Source of the DNA: Actinocatenispora thailandica | GTDB lineage: Bacteria > Actinomycetota > Actinomycetes > Mycobacteriales > Micromonosporaceae | Length of the DNA: 24,000 bases | NCBI RefSeq assembly: GCF_016865425.1 | Contig: NZ_AP023355.1 | Location: 842,198-866,197, forward strand | Direction of reading: 5' to 3' | Part shown: one piece after another, positions 7,609 through 24,000 of the stretch | Layout of the letters: each line of letters starts with the position of its first letter | Position numbering within the stretch: the stretch's first letter is position 1 | The notes under the pieces: model-generated | What the model was told of the DNA's origin: nothing | Databases searched by the model: none | The model's input: only the letters and a program-made list of their open reading frames with translations | Made by a program: the position numbers and the translations under genes

Positions 7609-8494
7609 CGGCGTCCCTGTTCCGCCCCGGCAGCCGGCCGGAGCGCAGATCGTCGAGCCGGCTGGCCAGGGTGTCGGCGCGCAGCCCGCGCACCAGCACC
7701 TCCAGCGCCGGCTCGATGCTGGTGCCGAGGAAGAACTCCTCGGCCGGGTGGCTGAGGTACAGCCGGCCCTGCTCGTCGACGATGAGAATGCTGCCCTCGT
7801 CGCCGGTCCGGCCGACCGGGAACGTGCGGATGCCGAGCCGACTCGCAAGCCGGAACGCCGACACCTCGACCAGGCGCACATCGGCCGGGAAGAAGTGGAT
7901 CGGAAACGCGCCCACCTGTTCGCCTCGCCCGTAGGGCACCAGGTCGAGCAGGCCGAACTCGCGGTACAGGTCCCGAGCGGCGGGGAACGGTTCGTGTCGC
8001 TGGCCGCGCCCGTCGGTCTGGGCCGCGAACTCGGCCAGCCACGGGTCGACCCGGGCCGCCGCATCCCTCCCCGGCAGCCAACCGGCCGCCAGCAGGGCCG
8101 CTTCGACGTCTCGCTGGAACCGCGGGTGGTGCACGTCGATCTCGTCGAACCGGTCGGCGTCGAACGGGATCGTCGGCGGCTCGTTGGACAACTCGCCCCG
8201 CACCAGTGTGGCCGGCGTGCTCTCCCGGGACTGCCGCTGCTCGTACTCGGCGCGCAGTCGTTTCTCGATCCGACCGGACTCGAACAGCGCCTCCCGGGCC
8301 GCGAGCCGCACGTCCTCCGGGACGGGCGGGCAGCGGTAGCCCTGCTCGACGATGTGGTCCAGGAACGCCGGCTGCGGCGCGAGCCGCCGGTGTTCCAGCT
8401 GGTACGTCGAGATCGTGGACCAGATCCAGACCCCGTCGGTCAGGTACTGCACCGGGACCGCCCAGCGCAGCGCGGGGTTGGCGGGATCGAACAC
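7601..8494 (-). CDS. SUKH-3 domain immunity-type protein with a conserved actinobacterial N-terminal domain (5' end uncertain, see finding)
   Basis: Track ORF with GTG start at 8494. The C-terminal ~170 aa show the SUKH-3 pattern (AGWLPGRD...FGLLDL......FFPADV....LGIRTFPVGRT.....ILIVDEQGRLY...FLGTSIEPALEVLVRG). The frame stays open and protein-like up to 8697 with no ATG/GTG/TTG, so the real N-terminus is probably longer. Confidence 0.7.
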   Translation of the reverse strand: MFDPANPALRWAVPVQYLTDGVWIWSTISTYQLEHRRLAPQPAFLDHIVEQGYRCPPVPEDVRLAAREALFESGRIEKRLRAEYEQRQSRESTPATLVRGELSNEPPTIPFDADRFDEIDVHHPRFQRDVEAALLAAGWLPGRDAAARVDPWLAEFAAQTDGRGQRHEPFPAARDLYREFGLLDLVPYGRGEQVGAFPIHFFPADVRLVEVSAFRLASRLGIRTFPVGRTGDEGSILIVDEQGRLYLSHPAEEFFLGTSIEPALEVLVRGLRADTLASRLDDLRSGRLPGRNRDADG

Positions 8495-8745
8495 GTCGTA
8501 GGTGCGCTCGTCGGAGGGGACCAGCAGCGCACCGGACTGCAGGTAGCGCAGCAGCCGGTCGCGTTCCTCGTCGTCCTCGATCCAGGGCCGGCTGGCCCAC
8601 GGGCGCGGCCGATCGTGCTCGTCGAAGCCGTCCGCGACCGGGGCGAACCGGAACCCGGCGACCTGTTCCGGGGGGTGATCGGGAGCGGTCGAGGCGGTCG
8701 CCAGCCGGCGTCACCCGATGCCGACCCCTGTGCGCGCTCTGCCAT

Positions 8746-8905: not shown

Positions 8906-9622
8906 GTGTTCACGCTGGACGAGGCTCGGCGCATCGCTGCCGCCTGGGTCGACCGTGGGCGGCCGGACGGTGCTCGCTGGCAGGCTCGGGTGCACGAGTT
9001 CGAACTGGGCTACGTGATCTGGGCCGTCCCGGCCGACGGCGACCGGCGCGAGGTCGGTGCTGGCCGTGGTGTCGTGGACAGGATGACCGGCGAGCTGTCG
9101 CTGTGGCCATCGCTGCCCGTGTCGAGCATCGTCGAGATGTTTCGTGCCGAGCGTGCCCGGGAGATCCCCGCTCCACGCACCTGGGACCCAGCCACCCAGG
9201 CCCGCCGCGACCTGGCCCGCGCCGGGTTCCCGGAGCACGTCACCCACCTGACGCTGGCGGATGGGCGAGCCCAGATCAGCCGCAGCACGAAGGGTGACGG
9301 TGAGCTCAACCTGCATCCGCTCGTCGCCGCGGCGCTGGCGGAGCTGCCGCCAGGATCCCGGGAGCGGGCCGCCGAGAGGTGCTCGGAGGTCGCGGCCTTC
9401 TCCGACGTGCTGCACCGGGCCGACACCCAGCGCCAGGCGGACCGGCGGCCGACGCTGTCGCTCGACGAGGTACGAGCCACCCTGTTCCGCGGCGCCGAGA
9501 TCGTCACCTACCGGGTGTGCGAGCCGGGTGACGAACTCGGTGGTCGGACCGTGCCGCCCTGCCTGGCCTGCCAGTACCTGCTCGGGTGGTTCGGCTTCGA
9601 GATGGCGGGGGGACGGCGGTGA
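8906..9622 (+). CDS. YrhB-like (immunity-type) N-domain fused to YwqJ-like deaminase-fold domain with intact CxE / PCxxC motifs
   Basis: Track ORF 8810..9622. I prefer GTG 8906 (VFTLDEARRIA...) because GGGAGGGG lies 4-5 nt upstream. The N-half has GYVIW.....G.GVVDRMTGELS.WPSLPV. The C-half has LADGRAQISRST....LHPLV....ERCSEVAAFSD (Cys 9380-9382, Glu 9386-9388) and PPCLAC (9557-9571). This motif order matches module 2 of the giant gene. Confidence 0.7.
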   Translation: MFTLDEARRIAAAWVDRGRPDGARWQARVHEFELGYVIWAVPADGDRREVGAGRGVVDRMTGELSLWPSLPVSSIVEMFRAERAREIPAPRTWDPATQARRDLARAGFPEHVTHLTLADGRAQISRSTKGDGELNLHPLVAAALAELPPGSRERAAERCSEVAAFSDVLHRADTQRQADRRPTLSLDEVRATLFRGAEIVTYRVCEPGDELGGRTVPPCLACQYLLGWFGFEMAGGRR

Positions 9623-10128
9623 CCGCGCGGTTCGGCCGTACCGCCGAGACGGCGTTGCGGACCGCCGGCTGGACCCCCGGCCGGGACGTGTCGGCCGCGA
9701 CCGCCGAGGCGATCCGGCGCACCGGTGAGCGGATCGGCGCAGACGGTGCCCGGCTGCGGGCGTTCCCGGCGGCGGTCACGGCGCTGAACGAGTTCGGCGG
9801 GCTGGCGATCGTCCCCAGGGAGCCGGGCGTCGATCAGGTACCGCAGCCCTTCGCGTTCGATCCGTTGCTGGCGCCGTTGTGTGCCGAGACCCTCGCCGAC
9901 GTGTCCACCGTCCTCGGTCTGCCGCTCTACCCGCTCGGCGTCGAGGGTGACGTCGCCGCGCTGCTGGCGATCGACGAGCAGGGCCGGGTGTTCTCCATCG
10001 ACCACACCGGCGAGTGGTTCCTCGGTGCGACGGTGGACGCGGCGATCGAGACGCTCGTCGCGGGGCGCCGACCGCCCCGGCTGCGGGACGACGGGACCTG
10101 GCCGCCGGCGGTTCAGCCCGCCTCGTAG
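9619..10128 (+). CDS. SUKH-3 domain immunity-type protein
   Basis: Track ORF 9586..10128. GTG 9619 overlaps the upstream stop (GTGA), which implies translational coupling. The product shows RTAGWTPGRDVS....ALNEFGGLAI......FAFDP.....LGLPLYPLGVEG....LAIDEQGRVF.......FLGATVDAAIETLVAG. It is paralogous to the C-half of 7601..8494. Confidence 0.8.
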   Translation: MTARFGRTAETALRTAGWTPGRDVSAATAEAIRRTGERIGADGARLRAFPAAVTALNEFGGLAIVPREPGVDQVPQPFAFDPLLAPLCAETLADVSTVLGLPLYPLGVEGDVAALLAIDEQGRVFSIDHTGEWFLGATVDAAIETLVAGRRPPRLRDDGTWPPAVQPAS

Positions 10129-10703
10129 CGGTGCTCGAAGTCGGCCAACGCCTTGCGCCGGCCGGCCAGCTCCGCCTCGATTGCGTCCCGCCGGAACCGC
10201 TCGGGTGCCACCTGGAGCGCGAGCCGGCCGGCCGGCGTCCAGAACGACGCCTCGGGCACCTCGTCGGCCCCGGACGCCGCGAACTTGAGCACCTCCGCGG
10301 TTGCCGCTGTCGCCGCGGAGAGCAGGTAGTAGACCGTGGTGAGATCGTCGTCGGACAGGTCGCCGGAGCCGAGCACGGCCTCGGCGTTCATCGTGAAGAG
10401 CTCCGCCGCGCCCAGCCACTCGCCGGCGTCGAGCAGCGTGGACGGCACGTCGTCCGGCCCGTACCGCACGTCGAAGGAGACCACGGGGGGCTCGGTCGGC
10501 AGTTCGAAGGTGAAGCTGCGGTCCCGGCCGCACGCCGGGCACCGACCCGAGTACCGCACGACGAACGCGCCGTCCGCCGAGCTGTGGTCGCTCTGCCGGT
10601 CGAACTGCGCCTCGCCGCAGGCGCACGGCCGCAACTCCATGTAGAGGTACGCCTCGTCGAAGGTGCGGGCGCGGGGAACAGCCATGGGCGCCACGATAGC
10701 CAC
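10113..10703 (-). CDS. Hypothetical protein with CxC...CxxC zinc-ribbon-like motif
   Basis: Track ORF with a GTG start at 10703; the alternative ATG 10685 gives MAVPRARTFDEAYLYMELRPCACGE...GRCPACG. Good G/C third-position bias. Its 3' end overlaps the convergent SUKH-3 gene by 16 nt (10113-10128). Function is unknown and the start codon is uncertain. Confidence 0.6.
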   Translation of the reverse strand: MAIVAPMAVPRARTFDEAYLYMELRPCACGEAQFDRQSDHSSADGAFVVRYSGRCPACGRDRSFTFELPTEPPVVSFDVRYGPDDVPSTLLDAGEWLGAAELFTMNAEAVLGSGDLSDDDLTTVYYLLSAATAATAEVLKFAASGADEVPEASFWTPAGRLALQVAPERFRRDAIEAELAGRRKALADFEHRYEAG

Positions 10704-10747: not shown

Positions 10748-12430
10748 CTACTGGGTGGCGCCGAGCAGGTCCTCCAGCTCCAGGGTGCGCAGATCGTCGC
10801 GGGACGGCATCCGGCCGAGCCTGCGCAGCCGGCCGGACTGCGCCTTACGCATGCTTTCCAGCAGCTTGCGGGCTTCGCGGGCGTTGCCGAAGTTCTGCCC
10901 CATCTGGATCTGGCTGAACCATTCGTACAGCGCGTCGTCCAACCCGTCGCCGAGCAGGTAGTCGTCGTTCTTGGCGATGCGGCTGACGATGAGCAGCAGT
11001 TCCTTGGGCGTGTAGTTCTCGAACTCCAGCGTCTTGGCGAACCGGGAGGCCAGACCGGAGTTGGCGTCGAGGAACTCGGTCATCTCGTTGGTGTAGCCGG
11101 CGACGATCACCGCGATCTCGTCACGGTGGTCTTCCATCAGCTTCACCAGGGTGTCGATGGCCTCCTGACCGAAGTCGCCGCTGCCGCCCCCGGATGCCCG
11201 GGAGAGCGTGTACGCCTCGTCGATGAACAGCACGCCGCCCATCGCCTCCTCGATGACGGCCGAGGTCTTCTCCGCGGTGTGGCCGATGTACTGCCCGACC
11301 ATGTCTCGGCGGGCGACCTCCTTGAACTTGCCGGCCGGGAGCACGCCGAGCGCCTTGAGCAGTTGCCCGTAGATGCGGGCGACGGTGGTCTTGCCGGTAC
11401 CGGGGGCGCCGGTGAAGATCAGGTGGTGGCTGACCGCGCCGACCGCGAGGCCCGCGTTGCGGCGCCACTCGTTGACCTGGATCTCGTCGATCAGCGCCCG
11501 GACCTCGGCCTTGACCGAGGCGAGGCCGACCATGGCGTCCAGGTCGGACAGCAGCCGATCGATCTGGGCGGGGTCCTGCTGGGTGGCGCCTTCCAGCGCG
11601 GCGACGCCGACCTTCGGTCGGTGTGCGGTGGACAGCGGCTCCCGGATGCTGGGGTTCGCGCCCTCGTCGACGTGGATGCCCGGGCTGGCGGTGTTCTCGA
11701 CCCGGCACTCGTCGACCTTGCCGCCACAACCCCGGCCGAACATGATCCCGACGCCCTGAGTGTCGTGGATCCAGGAGCCGTCGATCGTGGGTGAGCTGCC
11801 GTGGGCGATGGAGATGCCCGCGTCGCCGGTCTGCGAGATGTCGCAGCGTTCGATGGTCGGACGCCCGGACTGGTAGACGTACACCCCACGGAAGCCGCAC
11901 CCGGTGATGGTCGAGTTACGGATCGTGGGGTCGGCGCCGAGTCGGACGATGATTCCGTCGTCCGCGACGTTGGTGATCTCGCACTTGTCCAGCAGCCCGC
12001 CGGCGTCCTCGATGACGAAGCCGTACTGCCCGCCGGTCACCTTCGTGTCGGCGGCCTCCAGGCGCGTCCGGTTCGTCACGTTCACCGCGGGCGCGTACCC
12101 GGCCTGCAGAGTGCACTTCTCCAGCGAGATGCGGCCGCCGCGGACATCGACGGTGGCCCGGTCCGCGGACCGCAGGGACAGCCCGCGAACGGTCACCTCG
12201 CAGTCGCGCGCCTGCAGCGTCGGCAGCCCGGCCGAGGTCGAGTCGACCGTCACCGACCCCGCGTCGCCGGACGCCACCAGGGACACCCGCAGGCCGGACA
12301 GCACCAGCGCCTCCGGATACTCACCCGGAGCGATCGAAATGGTGTCGCCGGGCGAGGCGATCTCCAACGCATCGCGGATCGTGGGGTAGGCCCCGGGCTG
12401 CTGGGTCGAGACGACAAGGTTGCGTGCCAT
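10748..12430 (-). CDS. Right-handed beta-helix repeat domain fused to CbbX/SpoVK/EccA-type AAA+ ATPase
   Basis: Track ORF 10748..12655. I prefer ATG 12430 (MARNLVVSTQQPGAYPTIRDALE...) with GGCGGAG upstream; the earlier residues are Arg/Pro junk. The N-terminal ~330 aa have repeated G..V.......I..C.I pectin-lyase-like beta-helix rungs. The C-half has Walker A FTGAPGTGKTTVARIYG (~11380-11412), Walker B VLFIDEAY (~11210-11233), IVAGY and the SRF..T..F..Y tail typical of the CbbX/SpoVK clade. Confidence 0.85.
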   Translation of the reverse strand: MARNLVVSTQQPGAYPTIRDALEIASPGDTISIAPGEYPEALVLSGLRVSLVASGDAGSVTVDSTSAGLPTLQARDCEVTVRGLSLRSADRATVDVRGGRISLEKCTLQAGYAPAVNVTNRTRLEAADTKVTGGQYGFVIEDAGGLLDKCEITNVADDGIIVRLGADPTIRNSTITGCGFRGVYVYQSGRPTIERCDISQTGDAGISIAHGSSPTIDGSWIHDTQGVGIMFGRGCGGKVDECRVENTASPGIHVDEGANPSIREPLSTAHRPKVGVAALEGATQQDPAQIDRLLSDLDAMVGLASVKAEVRALIDEIQVNEWRRNAGLAVGAVSHHLIFTGAPGTGKTTVARIYGQLLKALGVLPAGKFKEVARRDMVGQYIGHTAEKTSAVIEEAMGGVLFIDEAYTLSRASGGGSGDFGQEAIDTLVKLMEDHRDEIAVIVAGYTNEMTEFLDANSGLASRFAKTLEFENYTPKELLLIVSRIAKNDDYLLGDGLDDALYEWFSQIQMGQNFGNAREARKLLESMRKAQSGRLRRLGRMPSRDDLRTLELEDLLGATQ

Positions 12431-12561
12431 GGCTCCGCCGGTGGAAGGGTTGACTTCTGCGCACACTATCTCAGGGGGTCCACGCAGGCGCGGGACGCGG
12501 TGACTTCCTGGCCACGCCCTAGAGTACTGACGACGCAACAGCTTGAGGAGACGCGGACGAC
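12431..12561. promoter_or_regulatory. Divergent intergenic region between the AAA+ gene (-) and the SseB-like gene (+)
   Basis: 131-bp gap between two divergent starts. Inferred from arrangement only; no box-level call. Confidence 0.3.
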
Positions 12562-14100
12562 GTGGATCTCGGCGAGGACGAGCAGCCGCCGGCCTGGCAG
12601 CCGGCGAACGACGTCGAGCGGCTGATGCTCGACGCCCTGGTGCGCAACCACTCACAGGACTACTTCCGGCTGGTGGCGACCGCCCCGCTGTACCTGCCGG
12701 TCTTCCTGGGCGACGCCAACACCGACCGCCAGCGGGTCGTGGTGAAGACCATCTCCGACGCCGAGCACCTGCTCGTGTTCACCTCGGTGCGGGGGCTCAC
12801 CGGGTACGTCGAGGCCGGCTACACGCCCGACAGTCGCCCCGACGGGTACGCCCAGACCAGCTACGAGGAGTTGGCCGCCCGGCGGCCGGAGCCGGAGTGG
12901 CGGCTGGCCATCAACCCGGGCCAGCCGATCGACGCCTACGTCGAGATCGACGCGGTGATGCACGCCGCGCTGGGTGACATCCAGATCCCGCTCGCGGACG
13001 AGCTGATCGACCCGGCCGGGGTCGGCGAGCGCGCGCCGATCCCGGCGGACTTCGTCCCAGCGAACGAGGCGGAGCGGGCCATCGAGTACGGACTGGTCCA
13101 CCGCGACATCGACGTCGCGATCGACGCGTTGGTCGTCGCGGACGTGCTGGTCGCCACGGCGGAGCAGGCCCGGCCGGACGCGGCGCTGACCGACCCGGAC
13201 TTCCCGTGGCAGCTGGAGTCGATCGACGACATCCCGTCGATCTGCGTGTTCACCTCGCAGCAGCGGCTGACCGAGGTGCTTCCACCGGACACCCCGGCGT
13301 ACCCGACGACGCTGGTCAAGCTGGCGCTGGCCTGGCCGGACGAGGACTGCCAGCTGATGGTCAACATCGGTTCGGCGATCGAGCTGGCGTTCGAGGGCGC
13401 GATGATCCCCTCGTTCGTGTCCTGGGCCTCGGACCTGATGGAGCGGGTCGAGTCCGGCGAGTACGCGGAGCCGGCCGATGCCCGGTTGGCGGACGCGGCC
13501 GGCACCGGTGTGGTGGTCGGAGGGCATGCGGTGGACGCGGTGATGCCGCCGGCGATCGGCGACCTGGCGCCGCCGGTCGGTGCCGCGGCGCCGGTGGCCG
13601 ACCCGGTGCTGTTCCAGAAGGTGCTCACGCCCGAACAGGTCCAGGCGTACCTGCGGGGCGGTGACCGGCGTGTCGCGGGCTTCGTCCACCCGTACGAGAG
13701 CGTGCGTGAGCTGACCACGCCACAGCAGCTCTACACCGGGCTCGGCCTGCTGCACGATCGCACCCCGTTCCGCGTCGACGACGAGGAAGTGCACGTTCTG
13801 CGGTGGACTGCCTACTGTCCGGAGCTGTATCGGCTCGCCATCGGTGGACGTGACGAACGGACCCGAGCCGCGGTGGATGGCTGGGTCGTGGCGCCGGCTC
13901 CGTTCCTGGGCAGTGGGATCGCGCCGGGCAGCGCCGGGGCACCGGAGTTCAAGGTGGACAGCGTCGAGTTGCCACACGGCGCGCAGCTGTGCCGGCTGGA
14001 CCGGTACGGGCGGCAGAGCGAGGTGGCGAACTTCGACGCGGACACCGGGACCTGGGCCGCCGCCGTCGGACGGCCGAGCTGGACGGAGGACGTTCGATGA
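12562..14100 (+). CDS. Tandem SseB-like (secretion-chaperone-like fold) domains + uncharacterised C-terminal domain
   Basis: Track ORF with a GTG start. Two copies of the SseB N-domain pattern: PANDVERLMLDAL....FRLVATAPLYLPV......LLVFTS and PANEAERAIEYGL....ALVVADVLVAT......ICVFTSQQRL. The C-terminal ~170 aa (VLRWTAY...GWVVAPAPFLGSGIAPGS..PEFKVDSVELPHGA.L.RLD) match nothing I can name. Confidence 0.75.
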   Translation: MDLGEDEQPPAWQPANDVERLMLDALVRNHSQDYFRLVATAPLYLPVFLGDANTDRQRVVVKTISDAEHLLVFTSVRGLTGYVEAGYTPDSRPDGYAQTSYEELAARRPEPEWRLAINPGQPIDAYVEIDAVMHAALGDIQIPLADELIDPAGVGERAPIPADFVPANEAERAIEYGLVHRDIDVAIDALVVADVLVATAEQARPDAALTDPDFPWQLESIDDIPSICVFTSQQRLTEVLPPDTPAYPTTLVKLALAWPDEDCQLMVNIGSAIELAFEGAMIPSFVSWASDLMERVESGEYAEPADARLADAAGTGVVVGGHAVDAVMPPAIGDLAPPVGAAAPVADPVLFQKVLTPEQVQAYLRGGDRRVAGFVHPYESVRELTTPQQLYTGLGLLHDRTPFRVDDEEVHVLRWTAYCPELYRLAIGGRDERTRAAVDGWVVAPAPFLGSGIAPGSAGAPEFKVDSVELPHGAQLCRLDRYGRQSEVANFDADTGTWAAAVGRPSWTEDVR

Positions 14101-14468
14101 TCGCGTCCGGATACCGAGCCCGCTGGCAGGGCACCGAGTACGAGGCGAGCCCGGACGGCGCCCTGGTCCGGCTGTACGGGTCGGACCAGGCCCCGGGCTT
14201 CGACGAGGTGCGGCCCGGCCGGTACCGGCGGATCGTGCCGGTCACCGAGCTGGAGTGGTTCGGTTACCTGCACGTGACCGGCCGGATCGACGGCGCGCCG
14301 GTCGTGCTGCTCGCCGAGCGCGGCGACGAGGTCCTGGCCGAGTACGTCGGCGGCCGGGGCCCGGTCGGAGCTGCGCTCGGACTGCCCGCGGTCGAACCCG
14401 GGGTGTACCGGGGTTGGGTGCCGCGGGCCAGGGTGGCCGATGTCATGCCCCGTCGAACCGGCTCGTGA
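14097..14468 (+). CDS. Small hypothetical protein (123 aa), translationally coupled to the SseB-like gene
   Basis: Track ORF 13989..14468. ATG 14097 overlaps the upstream stop (ATGA). The product MIASGYRARWQGTEYEASPDG...LLAERGDEVLAEYVGG...GVYRGWVPRARV has good codon bias. I do not recognise a named domain. Confidence 0.65.
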   Translation: MIASGYRARWQGTEYEASPDGALVRLYGSDQAPGFDEVRPGRYRRIVPVTELEWFGYLHVTGRIDGAPVVLLAERGDEVLAEYVGGRGPVGAALGLPAVEPGVYRGWVPRARVADVMPRRTGS

Positions 14469-14575
14469 ACTGCCGTTCACTTGCTCGCGGCGATTACCGT
14501 TTTCTCGGATAGAGTCGGCATCATTTCTCGTCGATGCGTGCATCGCGACGCGAGGAACGTCCGAGGAGGTGCTGG
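14469..14575 (+). promoter_or_regulatory. Candidate promoter/5' leader of the YbaB-like / EspC-like / giant-toxin operon
   Basis: This is the most AT-rich stretch of the window (…cgattaccgttttctcggatagagtcggcatcatttctcgtcgatg…). It has a TANNNT-type -10 candidate TAGAGT at 14510-14515 and the RBS GAGGAGG at 14563-14569 before ATG 14576. No convincing -35 sits at 17±1 spacing. Confidence 0.35.
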
Positions 14576-15013
14576 ATGATCGACGGGCCGGACCGGCCGC
14601 AGCGACCGGTCGACCACCCGGACTGGAGCGCGCTGCACGGCGCGTTCTCCGACCTGCGCAAACAGGTCGCCCGGGCGAAGGATGTGCAGAAGAAGGTCTT
14701 CCATCTCACGGCCACCGCGTGGTCGCCGGACCGGATGATCAAGGTCGTCGTCGGCCCGCGGGGCCAGCTCGTCGACCTGGACATCGACCCCCGGGTCTAC
14801 CGGCAGCCCAACTCCAAGGCGCTGGCCCGGTCGATCCTGGAGACCAGCCGGCAGGCGATCGAGCAGATCGCCGTGCAGACCGAGCAGATCCTCGACGAGG
14901 ACGTCCCGGCCGACCTGCGCATCGGCCGCACCGGTGCGGTCGATTTCCGCGCCGTGCTGAAGAGCCACGACGCCGAACTCCCGAAGAAGGTCGACGCGGA
15001 GGAGGACGACTGA
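14576..15013 (+). CDS. YbaB/EbfC-like small protein (type found in ESX-associated operons)
   Basis: Track ORF 14534..15013. I prefer ATG 14576 (MIDGPDRP...) with GAGGAGG 7 nt upstream. The core MIKVVVGPRGQLVDLDIDPRVYR.PNSKALARSILETSRQAIEQ fits the YbaB/EbfC pattern. Acidic tail. Confidence 0.75.
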   Translation: MIDGPDRPQRPVDHPDWSALHGAFSDLRKQVARAKDVQKKVFHLTATAWSPDRMIKVVVGPRGQLVDLDIDPRVYRQPNSKALARSILETSRQAIEQIAVQTEQILDEDVPADLRIGRTGAVDFRAVLKSHDAELPKKVDAEEDD

Positions 15014-16167
15014 TGGGCGAGGGCACGTTCGTCCAGATGGACGGCGACGCAACCAACTCCGCCGGCGCCCGGTACGCGCTGGCCGGTGACCGGTTGACCG
15101 CCAGAGGGTCGGCGGTGCGGTCCGGGATCGAGTCGGCCGAGGGACCGGCGCCCTGGGGCGACGACAAGTTCGGTAAGGCCTTCCTGGAAAAGTACGGCAA
15201 CCCGCAGGACGGCGACGAGACGCTGACCTTCATGACCGACGGTGGCGACCAGGTCAGTACGGTCGGCAACGCGGTGCAGTGGGCGGCCGTCGACGGAATC
15301 GACGCGGACTCGCAGGCCAAGCAGGCGATCCACTCGCTCGAGACCGACAAGCCGAAGGTGGCGGGCTCGCGCAGCGGCAGCATCATGACCGCGACCCGGA
15401 CCCGCTCCGAGCGGACCGGCTCGTCCGGCAACGGCACCGGGTCCGGGTCCGGCGGAAGCCGAACCACCGGAGCGGTCGACGCGAGGTACGCGACCGCCGA
15501 GGCCACCGGCGGCGAGGGCACCGACAGCCGGCAGCCGGACCGCCGGCTGTCGCTCGCCAGTGTCGCCACCGGCGGCATGACGATGCTGCATGCGGTGGAC
15601 GAACCGACCCCGCACGAGGGCGACCGACGGATGGCGCACGAGGTCTTCCGTTCCGGCGTCGGCTGGGTCACCGACGGTGTGTTGCCGGAGGGCTCCGAGC
15701 GGCCCGGCGACGGTTCCGATCAGGTCGAGTTCCGGCGTGCCACCGCCGCGGAGTTCACGCCGGTGGACGGCGCGTCGGCGCGGGCCGGCGAGTTGCACGC
15801 GGTGTACCGGCAGGACGGCGCACCGACCGACGGGGCCGCGCCGATGCACCCCGCGGGCTCCCCGCAGCCGGGATCCGGCTGGTCGGCCGGCCATGGCTAC
15901 CCGGAGTTCCGCGCCGTGGACCAGACCGGCGGGGTGGTCGGGCAGGCGCAGGACGTCGTGTCCACCGACCAGCACGGCGGAGTGCAGGGCATGGAGCACG
16001 CCGAGTTCCGGGTGGACGGTGCCGGCCAGCCCGTCGACGGAGCCGAACGGTACGTGCAGGAGGTCTACCGGCAGGACGGCGGCTGGACCCCGACGGCGGC
16101 GGTCGCCGATCCCCAGGGAATGGTCCGGGCCGAGGGAACGGTGCTGCCGGGGGCAGAACAGGTCTAG
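15013..16167 (+). CDS. EspC/WXG-like N-terminal helical domain protein with Gly/Ser linker and repeated C-terminal motifs
   Basis: Track ORF 14440..16167. ATG 15013 overlaps the upstream stop (TGATG). The N-terminus has FVQMDGDATNSAGARYALAGDRL......PWGDDKFGKAFLEKY, the W-G-x-D..G..F...Y pattern of small T7S-associated proteins. The C-half carries two copies of EF..VDG......VYRQDG (identical 15-mer taccggcaggacggc at 15805 and 16066). Confidence 0.7.
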   Translation: MGEGTFVQMDGDATNSAGARYALAGDRLTARGSAVRSGIESAEGPAPWGDDKFGKAFLEKYGNPQDGDETLTFMTDGGDQVSTVGNAVQWAAVDGIDADSQAKQAIHSLETDKPKVAGSRSGSIMTATRTRSERTGSSGNGTGSGSGGSRTTGAVDARYATAEATGGEGTDSRQPDRRLSLASVATGGMTMLHAVDEPTPHEGDRRMAHEVFRSGVGWVTDGVLPEGSERPGDGSDQVEFRRATAAEFTPVDGASARAGELHAVYRQDGAPTDGAAPMHPAGSPQPGSGWSAGHGYPEFRAVDQTGGVVGQAQDVVSTDQHGGVQGMEHAEFRVDGAGQPVDGAERYVQEVYRQDGGWTPTAAVADPQGMVRAEGTVLPGAEQV

Positions 16168-16191
16168 CCCGCCCCAGGACGGAAACACAAC

Positions 16192-16222
16192 CTCGGGCGG
16201 CCGTTCTGGAGGGCCGCCCGAG
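16192..16222 (+). other. Perfect 11-bp GC-rich stem-loop between the EspC-like gene and the giant gene
   Basis: ctcgggcggcc (16192-16202), a 9-nt loop gttctggag, then ggccgcccgag (16212-16222). No U-tract follows it, and the giant gene's RBS GGAGAGGAGG (16239-16248) lies 17 nt downstream. It is more likely a processing, stability or attenuation element than a full terminator. Confidence 0.5.
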
Positions 16223-16254
16223 TCATCACATCTGCAGCGGAGAGGAGGTAGCCG

Positions 16255-16740
16255 GTGGGCGGCTCGTACGGCGCCAACGACTACCTCTTCGACCCCATCC
16301 TCGAATTCTTCCGCGAGGTCGAGGAGTGGGTGCCCGGTGTGCTCGGGGACGTCCTGCGGTGGTTGATCGAGATCCCCGCCGGCTCCGAGCACGGGCTGGC
16401 CGACGTCGGCGACTCCCGCACCAAGGCCGGCGACACCCTGATGAACGCGCTGCAGGACCAGTCGGTCCCGGCCGCGACGATCTACGAGAAGTACGTCGGC
16501 GACGGCGCGCCGGCCGCGTTCGCCGGCCGCGACGGGGATCTGCGCGACCAGTTGCAGTCGATCGCCCAGCAGCAGTACGACAAGGCCAAGATCGCCTACA
16601 ACACCTCCAGCAGCATGGAGATGTCGAAGTTCATGGCCGCCACCGACCTGTACATGTTGGGGCAGGCCATCTACGCGGCGATCATGACGGCGGTCTCGTT
16701 GCCGCCGTTCGGCGGGCTGCTCAGCATCGGCGAGGTCGGC
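16255..16740 (+). other. N-terminal WXG100-like/T7S-targeting-type helical domain of the giant protein
   Basis: YEKYVGDGAPAAFAGRDGDLRDQLQSIAQQQYDKAK (Y-x-G-x-x-A-x-A-F at 16492-16521) occupies the position of the WxG turn between two predicted helices. A hydrophobic helix-like stretch follows (LYMLGQAIYAAIMTAVSLPPFGGLL). The assignment rests on this pattern only. Confidence 0.45.
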
Positions 16741-19700
16741 GGTGCGATGGCGGCCGCCGAGGCGGGGATCAAGAAGGCGCTCGCCGAGTTCCTGGAGAAG
16801 ATCCTCGGTGAGGACGCCGTCAAGAAGATCAGCGAGCAGGGGCTGAAGAAGGCGGTCACCAATCCCAGCGTGCTGGGCCACCTGGCGACCGCGCCGATCA
16901 AGGTGATTCCGACGCTCGGCAAGGAGGCCGTCGAACACGCCCCGGACCTGTACAAGTTCGGCAAGAACGCGGTCAAGGACCTCGGCCCGAAGATCAAGTC
17001 CTCGGTGCCGAAGATCGTCGACCACATGCCGAGCAAGGGCGACATCGGCCACTACATCGCCAACGGGGCAAGGAAGAGCGGCGACGCGTTGAAGTACGCG
17101 GCCCGGCACCCGATCGAGACGGTGGGGCGTGGCGCCCGGGCCGGCGGCCGGGAGGTCTGGGACGGCGTCAAGGCGACCGGGCGTGGCCTGGGACGCGGGG
17201 CGAAGACGGCCTGGGGAGGGGCGAAGAGCGCCGGCCGGTTCGCCTGGGACTCGCGCGGCGGCCTCAAACCGAGCAACCTGGCCGCCCGGCACGCGGCCAA
17301 CCACGCCGCCGAACGGTACGCGTCCCGGACCGCGGCGCGGGAGGCGCTGAACGCCGGAAAGGGCTTCAAGGAAGCGATGCGGGCCTCGGTCCGCGAGCAG
17401 GCGGAGAACGCGGCCGCCCGCAGCGCCGCGCGCACCGAGGCACGCAACGCCTTCCTCAAGGAGTACGGCGAGCGCGGCCTGGCCGGTAAGGCCGGCATGC
17501 TCGGGAAGGAGTTCGGCAAGGACGCGCTGATGAAGGGCAAGAACTTCGCCGCCTTCACGCTCAAGACCCAGGGCGTCGTCGACGCGTACCAGGTCGCGAC
17601 CGGACACATCAGCGTCGGCGATGGTCTGAAGAACCTGTGGAACCAGGAGAGCGGCGCGCTCGTCACCGGGGTGCTCGGCGCACCGCTGAGCTTCGGGCGG
17701 CAGGGGATGCTGCCCGAGATCTCCGGCATGGTCGGCGGCACCGTGGCGTTCGATGCGGCCAGCGCCTACAGCTTCAAGGACCACCAGTTCCACTGGGTCG
17801 ACGAGCAGGGGCACGAGAAGTCCGGCGGGTTCGGTGCCTTCTGGGGCCAGGAGAAGCACAACGCCGTGCACGCCGCCGCGTACGGCGCGATGGGCGGCGC
17901 CCAGCACATGCGGCTCAAGGCGGAGGAGTTCACCGCCCAGCAGGACCTCGCGACCGACCGACCGACGACGGCGTTCACTTCCCGTACCGGTAGCCCGGAC
18001 GTCCGGACGCCGGAGAGCCGGACCACCGCCCCGGAGGCCACCCGGACCAGCACCCAGGGCAGTGGCAGCCAGGTGCGCGGCGACGGCGGCGGGCCACGGA
18101 CCCGCTCGTCGACGCAGGAGTCGAACGGACCGTCCCAGCGGGAGCGCACGCGGTCCGGCGAGCCGTCGGAGTCGCGTGGCAGCGAGTCGGGCGACAACGG
18201 CTCGCGCGAGGCCCCGGAGCGGCGCACCGTGGTGCGTCCGAGGCAGCCCGAACCGGCAACCGGGCGGCAGGATCCGTCGCAGGGTTCGTCGGCCGAGAAC
18301 CCGACCCATCGGGTGGCGCAGCGCCCGGAGCAGGCGGCCGGCGACCCGCAGCACGCCGGCGGTGGTCCCGGCCGCGGTTCCGAGGCGCCCGACCAGCCCC
18401 GCCAGCACGAGCAGGGCACCAACCAGCCGCACGAGGCCGGGCAGGGCGACAGCCAGCGCGGCGACGACGGCCGGCCGCACGAGGGCCAGTCGGGCGACGA
18501 CGGTCGGCAGGGCGACAACCAGCAGGGCGATGGTCGGCAGGGGGACGGCCAGTCGGGTGACCACCGGCAGGGCGACGATCAGCGGCAGCCGGACGGCCAG
18601 CAGGGCGACGGCACGCGGCACGGCGACCAGCAGACGGAGCACCGCAGCTCGGAGGACCGGACACAGCGTCGGATCCGGCTCGGATCGGCCGACCCGGACG
18701 CGCACACCCAACACCGCACCCTGGGCGAGGACCTGGATCTGCTCGACCGCGGTCTGGCCAACCGGAAAGAGCTGGTCGACGTCGACATGGCGGAGGTCGT
18801 CCGGCACGCGGCGGCCGGCGAGGCGGCGCCGACGGTGCGGGTCGGTGGCCGGCTGCACGAGGTGCCGGAGCTGACCCGGCTGCGCGACACCCTGGTGGAA
18901 CACTTCACCGTCGAGGGGCCACACGGCGAGCGGGTCCCGATGGGCGACGACGCGGCGATCCGCGAGCACCTGCGGGAACTGCAGGATCAGGTGCGCGCCG
19001 AGCTGAACGAGGTCCGCACCGCCGACCCGGCCACGCACAGCACCGAACAGACCCGCGATGCCGCGGGCTTCCCCACCGAGTCCACCGACCGCCGTCCGAG
19101 CTACCAGAGCCACCCGACCGACGGCAACCGGTACAGCCGGAGTGATCTGGATGCGCAGCCGGACCCGTCCCGGGCGACGGATCGCGAGGCGGCCCGCGAC
19201 GAGTCCCAGAAGTTCGCCGACGACGTGCTCACCGAGCACACCCGTCGCTGGCTGCTCGACCCGTCGGGCGAGACCGTCGGCGCGCAACCGACCCGGGGGG
19301 CCACGCTGGTCGCCCCGGAGGGCGTGTTCCACAGCACCGGCTGGGAGGGCCGTACCGGCGAGGCGCCGGAGCCGGGGGTCGCGCCATCGGTGCACGACGT
19401 GGTCCAGGAACTCACCTACACCCCGCCGGCGGAGGTCGCCGAGGTACAGCGGCGCGGCGCCGAACTGCGCGACGCGACCGCCGAACTCGACCTGACCAAC
19501 AGCCGCTACGAGGCGGTGAACGAGGGCATCCGCGGCCTGGAGGACCGGATCGCCGCCAAGCACCAGGAGATCGCCGACCTGCGGGCGGAGAAGCAGCGCA
19601 CCATCGGCCGCGGCTACGACGGGCAGCGGATCCGGGCCGCCAACGAGGCCTACGATGCGCGGATCCGGCAGGCGGGCGAGGACCTGCGGGCGATGCAGGA

Positions 19701-22700
19701 CGAGCATCGGGTGCGGGCCCGGCAGGACCTCGCCCGGGCGGCCCGCGACCGCGCCATCGCCACCGTGCGGCACGAGAACGCCGAGCGGCAGTACGCGAGG
19801 GCGGAGAAGCGGGCCGACCGGCGCCACGCGCCCGACGGGTTGCTGCGGCACCTGCCGAGCAACGCCAGCCAGGCCGAGATCGCGGTCATGTCCGACTACG
19901 CGCGGCACGTCGAGCGGCAGATCGACCCGGCCACGGTCGTCGCGGACGAAGCCCGGTACGGGCAGGAGGACTTCCAGCGGCAGGCGCTCGGCGACGACTA
20001 CGCGGCGGTGCGCGCGGATGCCCAGCGGGACGCCGGTGGCGACCCGGCCGGGGTCCGCGAGCGGATGGCCGATGCCACCCGGGAGGCCCACCAGCGTCGG
20101 GTCCTCGGCGACGGCTACGACTCGCTGCGCGCCAAGGCCGAGCAGGGCGGTCGGGACGCGGCCACGGTCGAGGACCGGATGGCACGGCACACCCACGTGG
20201 CGGAGAAGCTGGCCGACGTGCGGGTGCACGCGTACGAGATCGGCGGCGACCGGCACGGCGAGATCTCCCATCCGGACCCGGTCACCGAGCGGAGCCTGGA
20301 ACGCGCCGGGATCGACCACGACCGGCTCGCCGACGTGCTGGACGGCGCACTGCTCGCCGATCCGGAACACCCGAACCGCATCGTGCTCGGGCGGGCCGGC
20401 AGCGAGCTGCGCGAGTTCGGCGAGCAGGTGCCGGACCACCCCGACCACCTGGTGATCGTCGCCGAGCGCGGCCCGAACGGCCTGCGTTTCGACGGTCGCG
20501 ACCTGTCCCATGCCGAGCTGGTCAAGGTGCTCCGAGACGTCGGACTGCCGCGGCCCGACCAGCGGATCGTGCTGGTCACCAGCGACGGCGGCAGCGTCGC
20601 CCGCGATCTTGCCCGGGAGTTCCGCACCGAGGTGTACGCGCTGCCGGAGCACGCCACGCTCGCCGGCGACGGCACGTTCGGCGTCGAGCGGCGGGCCGGC
20701 GGCGAGGAGGTGCCGGCCGGCGACGGCTGGCGACTTCACGAGCCGTACGGCACCAGCACCGAGGCGGACCTGCACCGCGAGTACCAGGACGCCCGCGCCG
20801 AGGCACACGAGCGCGGCTGGGAGGGGTACGAGCAGCGCGAGACCCGGCACGAGCCGAGCCAGCGCCCCGACCGCGACCAGCGACCGATCCGCCTCGCCGG
20901 GAACGGCCAGAGCGACCTGCACCGCGATCTGTCCGAGGAGGGCACCGGACGGCTGAAGACGCTGTCCAACGCCCGGATCATCGACCGGGTCGTGGGCGAT
21001 CTGGGCCTCGACCGGCACCGCCCGTTGCGGCTCGACGAGCAGCGCGTCGCCGAGATCCTGAAGACGGAGGTGGACGAGCGCGACGACCCGGCGCGGCGCC
21101 GGCTCCAGCAGATCGTGGAGCAGGAGTTCACGCATCTGGACGCGGACGGCAACCGGACGCCGAACAGCACCACCGAGATCCGTCAGCGCATCGCCGAACT
21201 GCGAGCCGAGGCACGCCAGGAGTACGCGGATGCGCGGGCCGCGGGCGACACCCGCGCCGGCACCCCGGAGTACGGCGACCGGTTGGAGCAGGTCGGCGGG
21301 TCCGGCGGCGAGGGGCACGGGTACACCCGGTCGGAGCCGCCGTCGAGGCACCGGGATCCGAACAGCCCGGCGGATCGTGCCGATGCCCGCGCCAGGGCGG
21401 TGAAGTTCGCCGACGACGTGCTCTACGCCGATCTGCGGGCGTTCGCGGAACACCCGGACGATCCGCCGGCGCGGCCGTCGATGGCGACGGTCATCATGAG
21501 CCCGGACGGCACGTTGCACTTCAGTACCTCCCGGACGGGTGTCGCGGGTGATGGCGTGCCGGCGGGGACACACCCGCTGATCGCCGCGGACTACCACCTC
21601 GTCGAGCACCAGCTCACCGGACACGGCAACGGTGAGGCAGAGTTCTGGGTCGGCGACGCCAACCACGGCGGGAGCCCGGTCTGGTTCAAGGAGTGGAGCC
21701 AGCGCAACCCGGAACTGGCGGAACTGGCCAAGCAGCACGACGCGGCTCTCGACCGCCGCCAGGGGGTGCTGGACAGCCTCAGGAAGCTCCCGGCCAGCGC
21801 GCCGGAGCAGGCCCGGACGCGGCTGACCGAACTGGCGACCCAGCGGGAGACCGAGGCCGGGCAGATCGACCGGGCCCTGCAGGAGAAGGCGGCCGAGCAG
21901 GGCAAGCAGCAGGAACTCGCCGACTACAAACGGTTCAAGAGCCTGTACGACGCGGAGCGCCCGGACGAGGCCGGTCGCCGGCAGGAGTGGTTGAACCGCC
22001 GGTTGGAGATCGCCGAGCGGTACACGCCTGGCCGGGGGCACGGCCGCTGCTCCGAGGTGTCCGGGCTGTCCGACCATGCCAAGCGGCTCGACCGCGAGTA
22101 CGACCAGTTGGGCCGGCGGGACGCGGCCCGGGTCGAGCACGCCAAGGAGTCGGTGCAGCGGCGCAACCTGGGCGAGCTGTACGACCGGCTGAAGGGGTCG
22201 GGTGCCACCGACCAGGAGCTGGCCCGGCACAGCTACGTCGCCGAACGGCTGCGCGAGATCTCGATCACCGCGCACCAGATCGGCGGCACCTTCCAGGTCG
22301 AGCACGGTGAGTACCGCGCGCCGTGCACGAGCTGTGAGCATGCGGAGCGGAATCTCGGCATCGTTCCGGATCACCTGCGGGAGATCGCCGACCGGGTGGC
22401 GCTGGGTGAGCCCAACAAGCTCGTGCTGGCCGAGCCGGGCACCGATCTCGCCCGGTACGCGGCCAACATTCCCCGGCACCCGGACGCGTTCGTCCTGGTG
22501 GCGCACGGCGAGCCGAACGCACTGACGTTCGACGGGTACCGGCTGAACCCGCGCGAGGTGCACGACCTGCTCGTCCAGGCGGGCTGGCGACCGGACCAGC
22601 GGATCGTCCTGCTCGGCTGCCGGGGCGGCGAGGTCCGCTACGACTGGCCGGGCAGCTTCGGCGCCGAGCTGCACAACGAGACCGGAGTGCCGGTCGTCGT

Positions 22701-24000: not shown

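Follow-up and report, generated by a model that had tools for sequence, protein, structure and literature searches.

A giant polymorphic toxin locus of Actinocatenispora thailandica as the probable effector-and-accessory arm of an actinobacterial ESX system

A stretch of 24,000 nucleotides from Actinocatenispora thailandica (contig NZ_AP023355.1, positions 842,198 to 866,197; the window, hereafter) carries a gene for a giant polymorphic toxin and a group of smaller genes, and this region is probably the effector-and-accessory arm of an actinobacterial ESX system (a type VII secretion system, T7SS, of the T7SSa class), parted from the ESX core in Actinocatenispora by the insertion of toxin/immunity and substrate cassettes. 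The region divides into two separable sets: a substrate triad, composed of a YbaB-like protein, a WXG100-family partner and the giant toxin, and an apparatus-side set, composed of an AAA+ ATPase with a small protein (u9) and an SseB-like protein with a UCP033725 family protein. This reading is built on family and fold assignments, on gene couplings and on linkage to ESX core genes in relatives; the idea that the region feeds a T7SS is supported because relatives carry the same genes beside ESX core genes. A preliminary description of this DNA had presented the genes as a candidate self-contained effector export and assembly module, for which it offered two hypotheses, a dedicated chaperone/targeting set feeding a distant T7SS or an uncharacterised toxin maturation/delivery system. 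The genes and sites involved are the following:

10113-10685, minus strand: u9, a 190-amino-acid (aa) CxC...CxxC protein, downstream of the AAA+ gene and in the same orientation
10748-12430, minus strand: beta-helix::AAA+ ATPase, 560 aa, of the EccA/CbbX/SpoVK class (Pfam, NCBIfam)
12431-12561, no strand: divergent intergenic region of 131 bp between the AAA+ and SseB-like genes (sequence reading)
12562-14100, plus strand: SseB-like protein, 512 aa (Pfam SseB, AlphaFold2 model)
14097-14468, plus strand: UCP033725 (PF27768) protein, 123 aa, in ATGA overlap with the SseB-like gene (family match)
14576-15013, plus strand: YbaB/EbfC-fold protein, 145 aa (PF02575, 7.4e-12), 107 bp after the 123-aa gene
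15013-16167, plus strand: 384-aa protein with a WXG100-type head, in TGATG overlap with the YbaB gene
16192-16222, plus strand: GC-rich stem-loop with an 11-bp perfect stem, between the partner and giant toxin genes
16255 to past 24000, plus strand: giant polymorphic toxin, GTG start, 87 bp after the 384-aa gene (2941 aa in the draft call)
16255-16750, plus strand: WXG100_2-type toxin head (PF25547, homologous heads in relatives)
18652-22905, plus strand: two tandem toxin repeats of about 720 aa (about aa 800-1520 and 1539-2217; blastp, half versus half)
22015-22341, plus strand: YwqJ-like deaminase core of repeat 2 (PF14431)
23908-24000, continuing beyond the window, plus strand: start of a papain-fold glutamine-deamidase domain (PF15644)

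Because the window has 72% G+C, genes were called by third-position GC (GC3) frame analysis together with open reading frame (ORF) calls, and these agree with the independent gene call of a draft contig (BAAAKF010000023.1, GCA_039527605.1) that is 99.97-99.995% identical to the window. Gene order, strands and the ATGA and TGATG overlaps of the preliminary description were borne out in both, and the genes that it listed are real, except that a sixth conserved gene, u9, lies just outside the start of the region described. The AAA+ and SseB-like genes diverge across the 131 bp that separate them, and the ATGA overlap of 14097-14468 with the SseB-like gene indicates translational coupling. A TAGAGT hexamer, similar to actinobacterial -10 elements, is present ahead of both plus-strand operons (12520-12525 and 14510-14515); neither box has a canonical -35 at the usual spacing, and a scan with the sigma-70 consensus reports no promoter. 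The 87-nt spacer between the partner and toxin genes folds at -36.2 kcal/mol, which is ordinary for its composition (z-score -1.4), and its stem-loop lacks a T-tract and is not called by a terminator scan. The closest other genomes are those of A. comari and A. sera; the SseB-like protein is Athai_07750 of A. thailandica, its listed identity of 91% reflecting a linker cut from the query.

Linkage to ESX genes was analysed in relatives identified by a UCP033725 profile scan with one genome per species, which yielded 354 relatives, the best 80 loci of which (all from Micromonosporaceae) were analysed. A T7SS marker (an esxAB-like pair, a mycosin-like S8 protease or EccB) is present in the flank of 69 of these 80 species-representative loci, and lies by the SseB-like/UCP033725 pair in 64 of the 67 species-representative Micromonosporaceae loci that have at least 6.5 kb of upstream flank, with a median distance of 3.4 kb between the mycP and UCP033725 genes. 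In virtually all 80 loci the UCP033725 gene follows a sequence for the SseB-like C-terminal region. A metagenomic locus (L005) contains, in a single row, eccC, eccD, eccB, two WXG100 genes (esxAB), mycP, the beta-helix AAA+, the SseB-like protein, UCP033725, YbaB, a 118-aa partner and a giant protein with a WXG100_2 head. In Dactylosporangium (L011) an EccE-like gene, EccB (2e-54), two WXG100 genes and mycP are found with a multi-SseB protein and UCP033725. Both the L005 row and the 64 ESX-linked loci support the hypothesis of a chaperone/targeting set that feeds a distant T7SS.

Other relatives have the module in part or in other arrangements. Sphaerisporangium (L002) carries the SseB-like protein, UCP033725, YbaB, a 119-aa partner and a giant protein of 2859 aa; another metagenome (L003/L004) has the AAA+, SseB-like and UCP033725 genes, then 6 kb of unrelated cassettes, after which come YbaB, the partner and a giant protein exceeding 3000 aa; A. 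sera (L088) shows the same layout as the window, and in Allokutzneria (L089) the divergent AAA+/SseB pair lies by an ORF of 25,404 aa. In searches with hidden Markov models, YbaB, partner and WXG100_2 head were found only together and in that order, in 9 loci, 6 of them independent.

The second hypothesis, which holds that the AAA+, SseB-like, UCP033725 and YbaB-like proteins form a T7SS-independent toxin maturation/delivery system, is very improbable. A tblastn search with the ESX core proteins of L005 detected no EccB, EccC, EccD or mycosin in the 24 kb of the window, as had already been reported, no ESX core is present in the flanking sequence retrieved for the A. comari and A. sera loci, and there is no T7SS gene within 10 kb in the Allokutzneria and Stackebrandtia loci, all of which speaks for such a system; however, the substrate genes bear T7SS hallmarks (WXG100 and WXG100_2 families, YxxxD/E motif) and relatives have the same genes inside ESX core loci. 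Furthermore, all products of the set are predicted to be cytosolic, with neither signal peptide nor membrane segment, and reading of their sequences gave no candidate for a channel or a membrane ATPase. The same two points, soluble components and relatives embedded in ESX loci, speak against the self-contained module of the preliminary description.

The two sets differ in how they are distributed. The triad is on the same strand and downstream of the SseB/UCP033725 pair in all six independent loci, five of which also contain the beta-helix AAA+, while most relatives have the pair without the YbaB/partner/giant triad and mostly without the AAA+. The five accessory families, for which neighbourhood conservation had been proposed as a check, do not behave as one unit. 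Since most Micromonosporaceae copies have no adjacent giant toxin, the SseB/UCP033725 pair may serve the ESX system generally and not the toxin of the window. A rival reading is that the adjacency is accidental, the AAA+, SseB-like and UCP033725 proteins being general ESX-locus or housekeeping factors (involved in apparatus assembly, regulation or the envelope), with the triad alone being toxin-specific and effector cassettes inserting at this edge of the ESX locus. It is rather unlikely, even if some 70 Micromonosporaceae loci have the pair by mycP with no YbaB, partner or giant (in Micromonospora and Dactylosporangium, ordinary genes are found downstream of UCP033725), the Stackebrandtia pair is on its own, and 6 kb of unrelated cassettes separate UCP033725 from YbaB in L003: the constant position and strand of the six independent triads and the AAA+ in five of them argue against chance, and the Allokutzneria AAA+/SseB pair likewise abuts a giant ORF. 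These counts have a sampling bias, as every locus was found via UCP033725 or SseB-like proteins, and triads without either fall outside them.

Within the triad, the YbaB-like protein scores 45.7 bits against PF02575 (cut-off 25.5) and 19.6 bits against the nucleoid-protein equivalog TIGR00103, below its cut-off of 49.45, and it is therefore not regarded as the housekeeping nucleoid protein. YbaB-like EspL, EspD and EspH have been described as putative ESX chaperones (PMC6109436, PMC6319747), and from its genomic context (a position like those of EspL, EspD and EspH) an EspL-like role may be proposed for the protein of the window. The gene coupled to it had been described as encoding a small EspC/WXG-like partner. 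The family part of that description stood, since the protein opens with ~125 aa from a divergent partner family of the WXG100 type, and the size did not, the gene encoding 384 aa with a tail of ~260 aa that is found only in the Actinocatenispora copies (window, L006 and L088). An exhaustive phmmer search of 1.84 billion proteins gave 21 representatives of this family, typically of 110-128 aa, with an invariant PWGxD..G..F...Y motif; five of the 21 match PF06013 WXG100 (best 5.4e-9) and one matches EspC weakly, while the window copy gives no match to PF06013 or a related model even at E<=1. In 16 of the 21, [YF]xxx[DE] closes helix 2, and this type of position after helix 2 is the site of the general T7SS export signal (PMC6109436).

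The giant toxin is 2941 aa long in the draft assembly, ending near the window-equivalent position 25080, ~1 kb beyond the window, and its GTG start at 16255 is preceded by a ribosome-binding-site-like sequence, GGAGAGGAGG. Its orthologue has 10,631 aa in A. sera, more than 3000 aa in L003 and 2859 aa in L002. Between loci, the heads share 31-36% identity (tblastn), and those homologous to the window head score 35.4 (L002), 45.3 (L003) and 53.4 bits (L005) against PF25547 in the same region; a PDB sequence search gave no match for the head. The C-terminus matches PF15644 Gln_amidase with 56 bits (E 1e-14, L001:19593-20372), a match that reaches 468 bp past the window end. With a WXG100_2-type N-terminal trafficking domain, a C-terminal toxin domain (Gln_amidase) and an internal YwqJ-like deaminase, the protein has the make-up of a polymorphic toxin, and WXG-headed polymorphic toxins have been assigned to T7SS (PMC3482391); the same survey, from 2012, mentions neither YbaB nor AAA+ partners.

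The two repeats of the toxin (18652-20814 and 20869-22905) are 27% identical over 775 columns when the two halves are compared by blastp (E 5e-53). Repeat 2 matches YwqJ-like deaminases with 22.3 bits (PF14431, E 1.6e-4, cut-off 25.9) and, as read from the alignment, retains both deaminase motifs, CxE and PCxxC, as well as the His/Cys pair of AHGE...LGCRGG, all of which repeat 1 lacks (AERG...VTSDGG). Because the motifs are kept in repeat 2 alone, the toxin appears to contain one decayed and one apparently active copy of a ~720-aa module. The catalytic motifs of repeat 2, GRCSEV and PCTSC, are collinear with those of a stand-alone YwqJ deaminase encoded upstream; that this would be a close cassette copy of the toxin deaminase was considered and rejected, the overall similarity being of E 0.077. 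A caspase/CPD-like processing protease in the AHG...LGC segment of repeat 2 was also rejected, having neither family support nor a PDB sequence match. In A. sera (L088, 13804 onward) the orthologous toxin is called at 10,631 aa, and in Allokutzneria the ORF at L089 1-7187, beside the AAA+/SseB pair, is called at 25,404 aa; these sizes suggest a large-scale amplification of toxin modules.

The AAA+ protein of the apparatus-side set combines an N-terminal beta-helix with a CbbX-type AAA+ domain containing Walker motifs (GAPGTGKT and LFIDEAY, read in the sequence). It matches the Pfam families Beta_helix (PF13229, 1.7e-25), NosD (5e-10), AAA (7e-19) and AAA_lid_6 (1e-14), and the NCBIfam models SpoVK, EccA and CbbX with 262.5, 246.7 and 225.5 bits, all under their equivalog cut-offs (466.65 bits for EccA, TIGR03922); the EccA model is matched over its positions 274-528 alone, that is, over its AAA half. 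The best solved relative is EccA1 (9lur_A, 3.6e-52), with CbbX just behind (~1e-50). A Pfam scan gave Beta_helix/NosD and no tetratricopeptide repeat (TPR) match in the N-terminal ~290 aa. As EccA is defined by six N-terminal TPR motifs and an AAA+ domain (PMC6109436), the protein is considered an EccA-class ATPase and not EccA. With the copies in L089, L003 and L005 it shares 61-74% identity, a conservation far above that of its neighbours, and the beta-helix AAA+ is found in the Actinocatenispora-like loci and in these three, always divergent from the SseB-like gene. The L005 orthologue, which is 74% identical, lies in an ESX locus and adjoins mycP; no ESX locus was found around the window, L003 and L089 copies. 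The u9 gene is kept after the AAA+ gene in L003 (31% identity, E 3e-20) and in L006 and L088 (80-83%), and matches no Pfam or NCBIfam family. Similar genes are found right after the giant toxin in Sphaerisporangium (L002, 20220-20447) and right after the UCP033725 gene in a metagenome-assembled genome (L007, 10920-11258), and u9 can therefore be said to shift its place within the module. It may be a small Zn-ribbon-like partner of the AAA+ protein, and is a candidate immunity protein or adaptor.

The whole SseB-like protein passes the Pfam SseB model (PF07179) weakly (26 bits, cut-off 21); its homologues score 40-62 bits, in some cases over two separate stretches, and their source records call them 'SseB family protein'. 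An AlphaFold2 model built on 31 homologues (predicted local distance difference test, pLDDT, 81.9) comprises two SseB domains (~aa 15-147 and 160-300) with a common secondary-structure pattern, then a linker that is disordered (303-342) and an alpha/beta domain at the C-terminus (345-503). The tandem SseB arrangement of the preliminary description was thus recovered as two domains of like fold, to which a third, C-terminal, domain has to be added; its other family assignments (EccA/CbbX-class AAA+, SseB-like, YbaB-like, WXG-like partner and WXG-like toxin head) held. The best Foldseek matches of the model are Tic22 (4e6z and 4ev1, E ~0.03) and TTHA0547 (prob 0.99), none of them at E<=0.001. 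A relation between SseB and Tic22, found by HHpred, and a peptide-binding chaperone function proposed for SseB domains have already been published (PMC9503650), and Foldseek independently agrees with that link. For UCP033725, 33 homologues were found, the majority with a precomputed PF27768 match; its AlphaFold2 model (pLDDT 94.9) is all-beta with two lobes and has no significant solved analogue, the best being the FMRP tandem Tudor domain (E 0.44). PDB sequence searches gave no match for either protein. In Micromonospora and Dactylosporangium, UCP033725 is coupled to a gene for a multi-SseB protein of 1253-1547 aa, directly by mycP (L036:6243-10004 and L011:5361-10004), and no beta-helix AAA+ is present within 10 kb in these loci. 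In L011 a gene for a D12-class N6-adenine DNA methyltransferase (2601-3398, minus strand, 2.5e-46) lies within the ESX locus, between eccB and the esx genes.

The C-terminal domain (aa 345-503, window 13594-14097) is the most conserved part of the SseB-like protein, with G-F, LRW, LYR, GG, GW, PFxGxG, LPHGA and FDAD..W as invariant residues, and could be an enzyme. The protein might even be a toxin, with an ADP-ribosyltransferase/NADase-like C-terminal domain and the coupled UCP033725 acting as inhibitor or immunity protein in the way that IFT acts on TNT. The many invariant residues, an ATGA coupling to a small partner of the kind typical of toxin-immunity pairs, a weak Foldseek match to the RhsP2 ADP-ribosyltransferase toxin (7rt7_A, prob 0.25) and the ties of SseB domains to ADP-ribose systems (PMC9503650) point in that direction. 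It is nonetheless improbable, because a putative resemblance to TNT motifs is not borne out by the profile of the domain, which matches nothing in Pfam or the PDB (TNT included), and because the RhsP2 match is far below significance.

Several observations weigh against assigning the region to an ESX system. No ESX core gene is present in the 24 kb, and a T7SS elsewhere in the organism is an assumption. The hallmarks themselves are eroded in the window: the toxin head scores 15.6 bits against PF25547 (E 0.016, cut-off 27) and has YVG at the WxG position, and the partner reads DGIDAD, in which the Tyr of YxxxD is replaced by G and the Asp is kept, and has gained a 260-aa tail. Profile-profile comparison (hhalign) of the partner with canonical WXG100 proteins, the local EsxA/B, is insignificant on shallow alignments, as is that of the toxin head with them, the WxG regions being nonetheless aligned. 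The Tic22 match of the SseB-like model is weak (prob 0.3-0.4). To these must be added the Stackebrandtia pair, alone among housekeeping genes, the lack of an adjacent giant toxin at most Micromonosporaceae SseB/UCP033725 pairs, and the anchoring on UCP033725, which leaves the rate of triads without it outside the counts.

For the effector-and-accessory arm, a mechanism can be proposed in which the physical interactions, the chaperone and ATPase roles and the T7SS dependence in this organism are read from folds and context. The partner (a WXG100-type hairpin from a family with the YxxxD/E-type export motif) would pair with the WXG100_2 head of the toxin, and the resulting helical bundle would present a composite signal to EccC. 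The YbaB-fold protein would stabilise this pre-secretion complex in the cytosol, as is thought for EspL, EspH and EspD with EspE/F and EspA/C. The tandem-SseB protein (with its Tic22-like fold) and UCP033725 would hold long substrates in a secretion-competent state, and a hexamer of the beta-helix::AAA+ protein, an EccA analogue in which a beta-helix replaces the TPR domain, would spend ATP on remodelling substrate-chaperone complexes, or on releasing them, at the secretion machine. Once exported, the toxin would deliver several enzymatic domains, among them the YwqJ-like deaminase and the C-terminal papain-fold glutamine deamidase. As a more tentative extension, it is possible that AAA+, u9, tandem-SseB and UCP033725 are an unrecognised cytosolic handling machine of non-mycobacterial ESX systems that replaces EccA/EspG, its Tic22-like domains and ATP-driven remodeller keeping toxins of 3,000 to more than 25,000 aa unfolded and feeding them to EccC; no described counterpart of the apparatus-side set was found in the literature searched.

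How T7SS recognise and handle very large toxins is little understood beyond the Firmicutes LXG toxins and the mycobacterial Esp and PE-PPE substrates. The locus and its relatives offer candidates that are conserved and accessible to genetics: an EccA analogue lacking TPR, a tandem chaperone of the SseB/Tic22 type together with the beta-protein coupled to it, and a WXG partner with its YbaB-like factor. ESX-dependent polymorphic toxin loci were already known; what is moderately new here is the TPR-less EccA analogue and the SseB/UCP033725 pair, probable ESX accessories that appear to have gone unrecognised. In the literature searched, nothing was found that connects SseB-domain proteins with ESX loci, and the pair, which borders ESX loci on their mycP side across the Micromonosporaceae, thereby gains a functional context. 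Among giant toxins built of many modules, the toxin is also a further case in which one module is present in both decayed and active form.

The 10 kb upstream are more of the same island, with two gene pairs carrying a WxG motif, a gene that joins a WHH nuclease to SUKH, and a YwqJ deaminase accompanied by SUKH-3, immunity-type genes of both SUKH-1 and SUKH-3 types thus being present upstream of the giant toxin:

2-802, 847-3027, 3158-4117 and ~4170-6392, plus strand: two tandem paralogous gene pairs (ORF calls)
6595-7608, minus strand: 337-aa WHH (HNH/EndoVII) nuclease and SMI1/KNR4 (SUKH-1) in a single ORF (domain matches)
7601-8710, minus strand: second SUKH-3 gene (domain match)
8906-9622, plus strand: stand-alone YwqJ-like deaminase, 4e-20 (domain match)
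9619-10128, plus strand: SUKH-3 immunity gene, 1e-38, with a 4-bp overlap with the YwqJ-like deaminase gene

Each paralogous pair begins with a ~320-aa protein, helical towards its N-terminus and rich in Thr towards its C-terminus. The second protein, of 726-790 aa, has a helical N-domain with a WTGDAA (WxG) motif, matching PPE weakly (19.7 bits), then a long Pro-rich linker and, at the C-terminus, a tail that is conserved. Both pairs are probably additional ESX substrates, and homologous pairs are found in A. sera, A. comari and L003. The WHH/SUKH-1 fusion has no trafficking domain, and the same fusion is present in A. sera and in the metagenomic L003. The draft contig stops at window position ~2000, within the duplicated gene pairs of window 1-1999, which probably broke the short-read draft assembly. 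Window and draft are distinguished by a 1-bp indel at one position between 4098 and 14097; the minus-strand SUKH-3 gene encodes 381 aa in the draft call versus an open frame of at most 369 aa in the window, which is consistent with the indel falling in this gene.

When compared with known systems, the triad parallels EspD-EspC-EspA and EspL/EspH-EspF-EspE (PMC6109436, PMC6319747), as well as the upstream partners of LXG toxins. As in the mycobacterial ESX-1 sets (espACD; EspE/EspF with EspH and EspL), a YbaB-fold cytosolic protein is encoded by a small YxxxD/E partner and a larger WXG-type substrate; the Esp substrates of ESX-1 are co-dependent, and the YbaB-like Esp proteins have been proposed as chaperones (PMC6109436, PMC6319747). 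However, the large substrate here is a multi-toxin polymorphic protein of ~2900 aa instead of EspA or EspE, there is no sequence-level orthology to Esp proteins, and the Actinocatenispora partner (window, L006, L088) has its 260-aa tail and lacks the Tyr. Like the WXG/LXG-headed polymorphic toxins of T7SS, the toxin starts with a helical trafficking domain and ends in variable toxin domains; small helical targeting partners are likewise encoded directly upstream of it, and SUKH-type immunity genes lie close by. It differs from the LXG-Lap systems of Firmicutes in its actinobacterial T7SSa context and in the tandem repetition of its toxin modules, of which it carries several (the A. sera toxin reaches 10,631 aa), and the YbaB-like, SseB-like, UCP033725 and beta-helix AAA+ proteins are unrelated to Lap1, Lap2 and DUF4176. 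The AAA+ protein resembles EccA in its C-terminal CbbX-type AAA+ domain with lid, and in the location of the L005 gene by mycP within an ESX locus, but its N-terminus is a right-handed parallel beta-helix (NosD/pectate-lyase type) where EccA has six TPR repeats. Finally, the SseB-like protein is, like Tic22 (its best Foldseek match), a tandem pair of the same alpha/beta domain; Tic22 is found in the periplasm or intermembrane space, whereas the SseB-like protein, which appears to have no signal peptide, adds a conserved C-terminal domain and a coupling to UCP033725.

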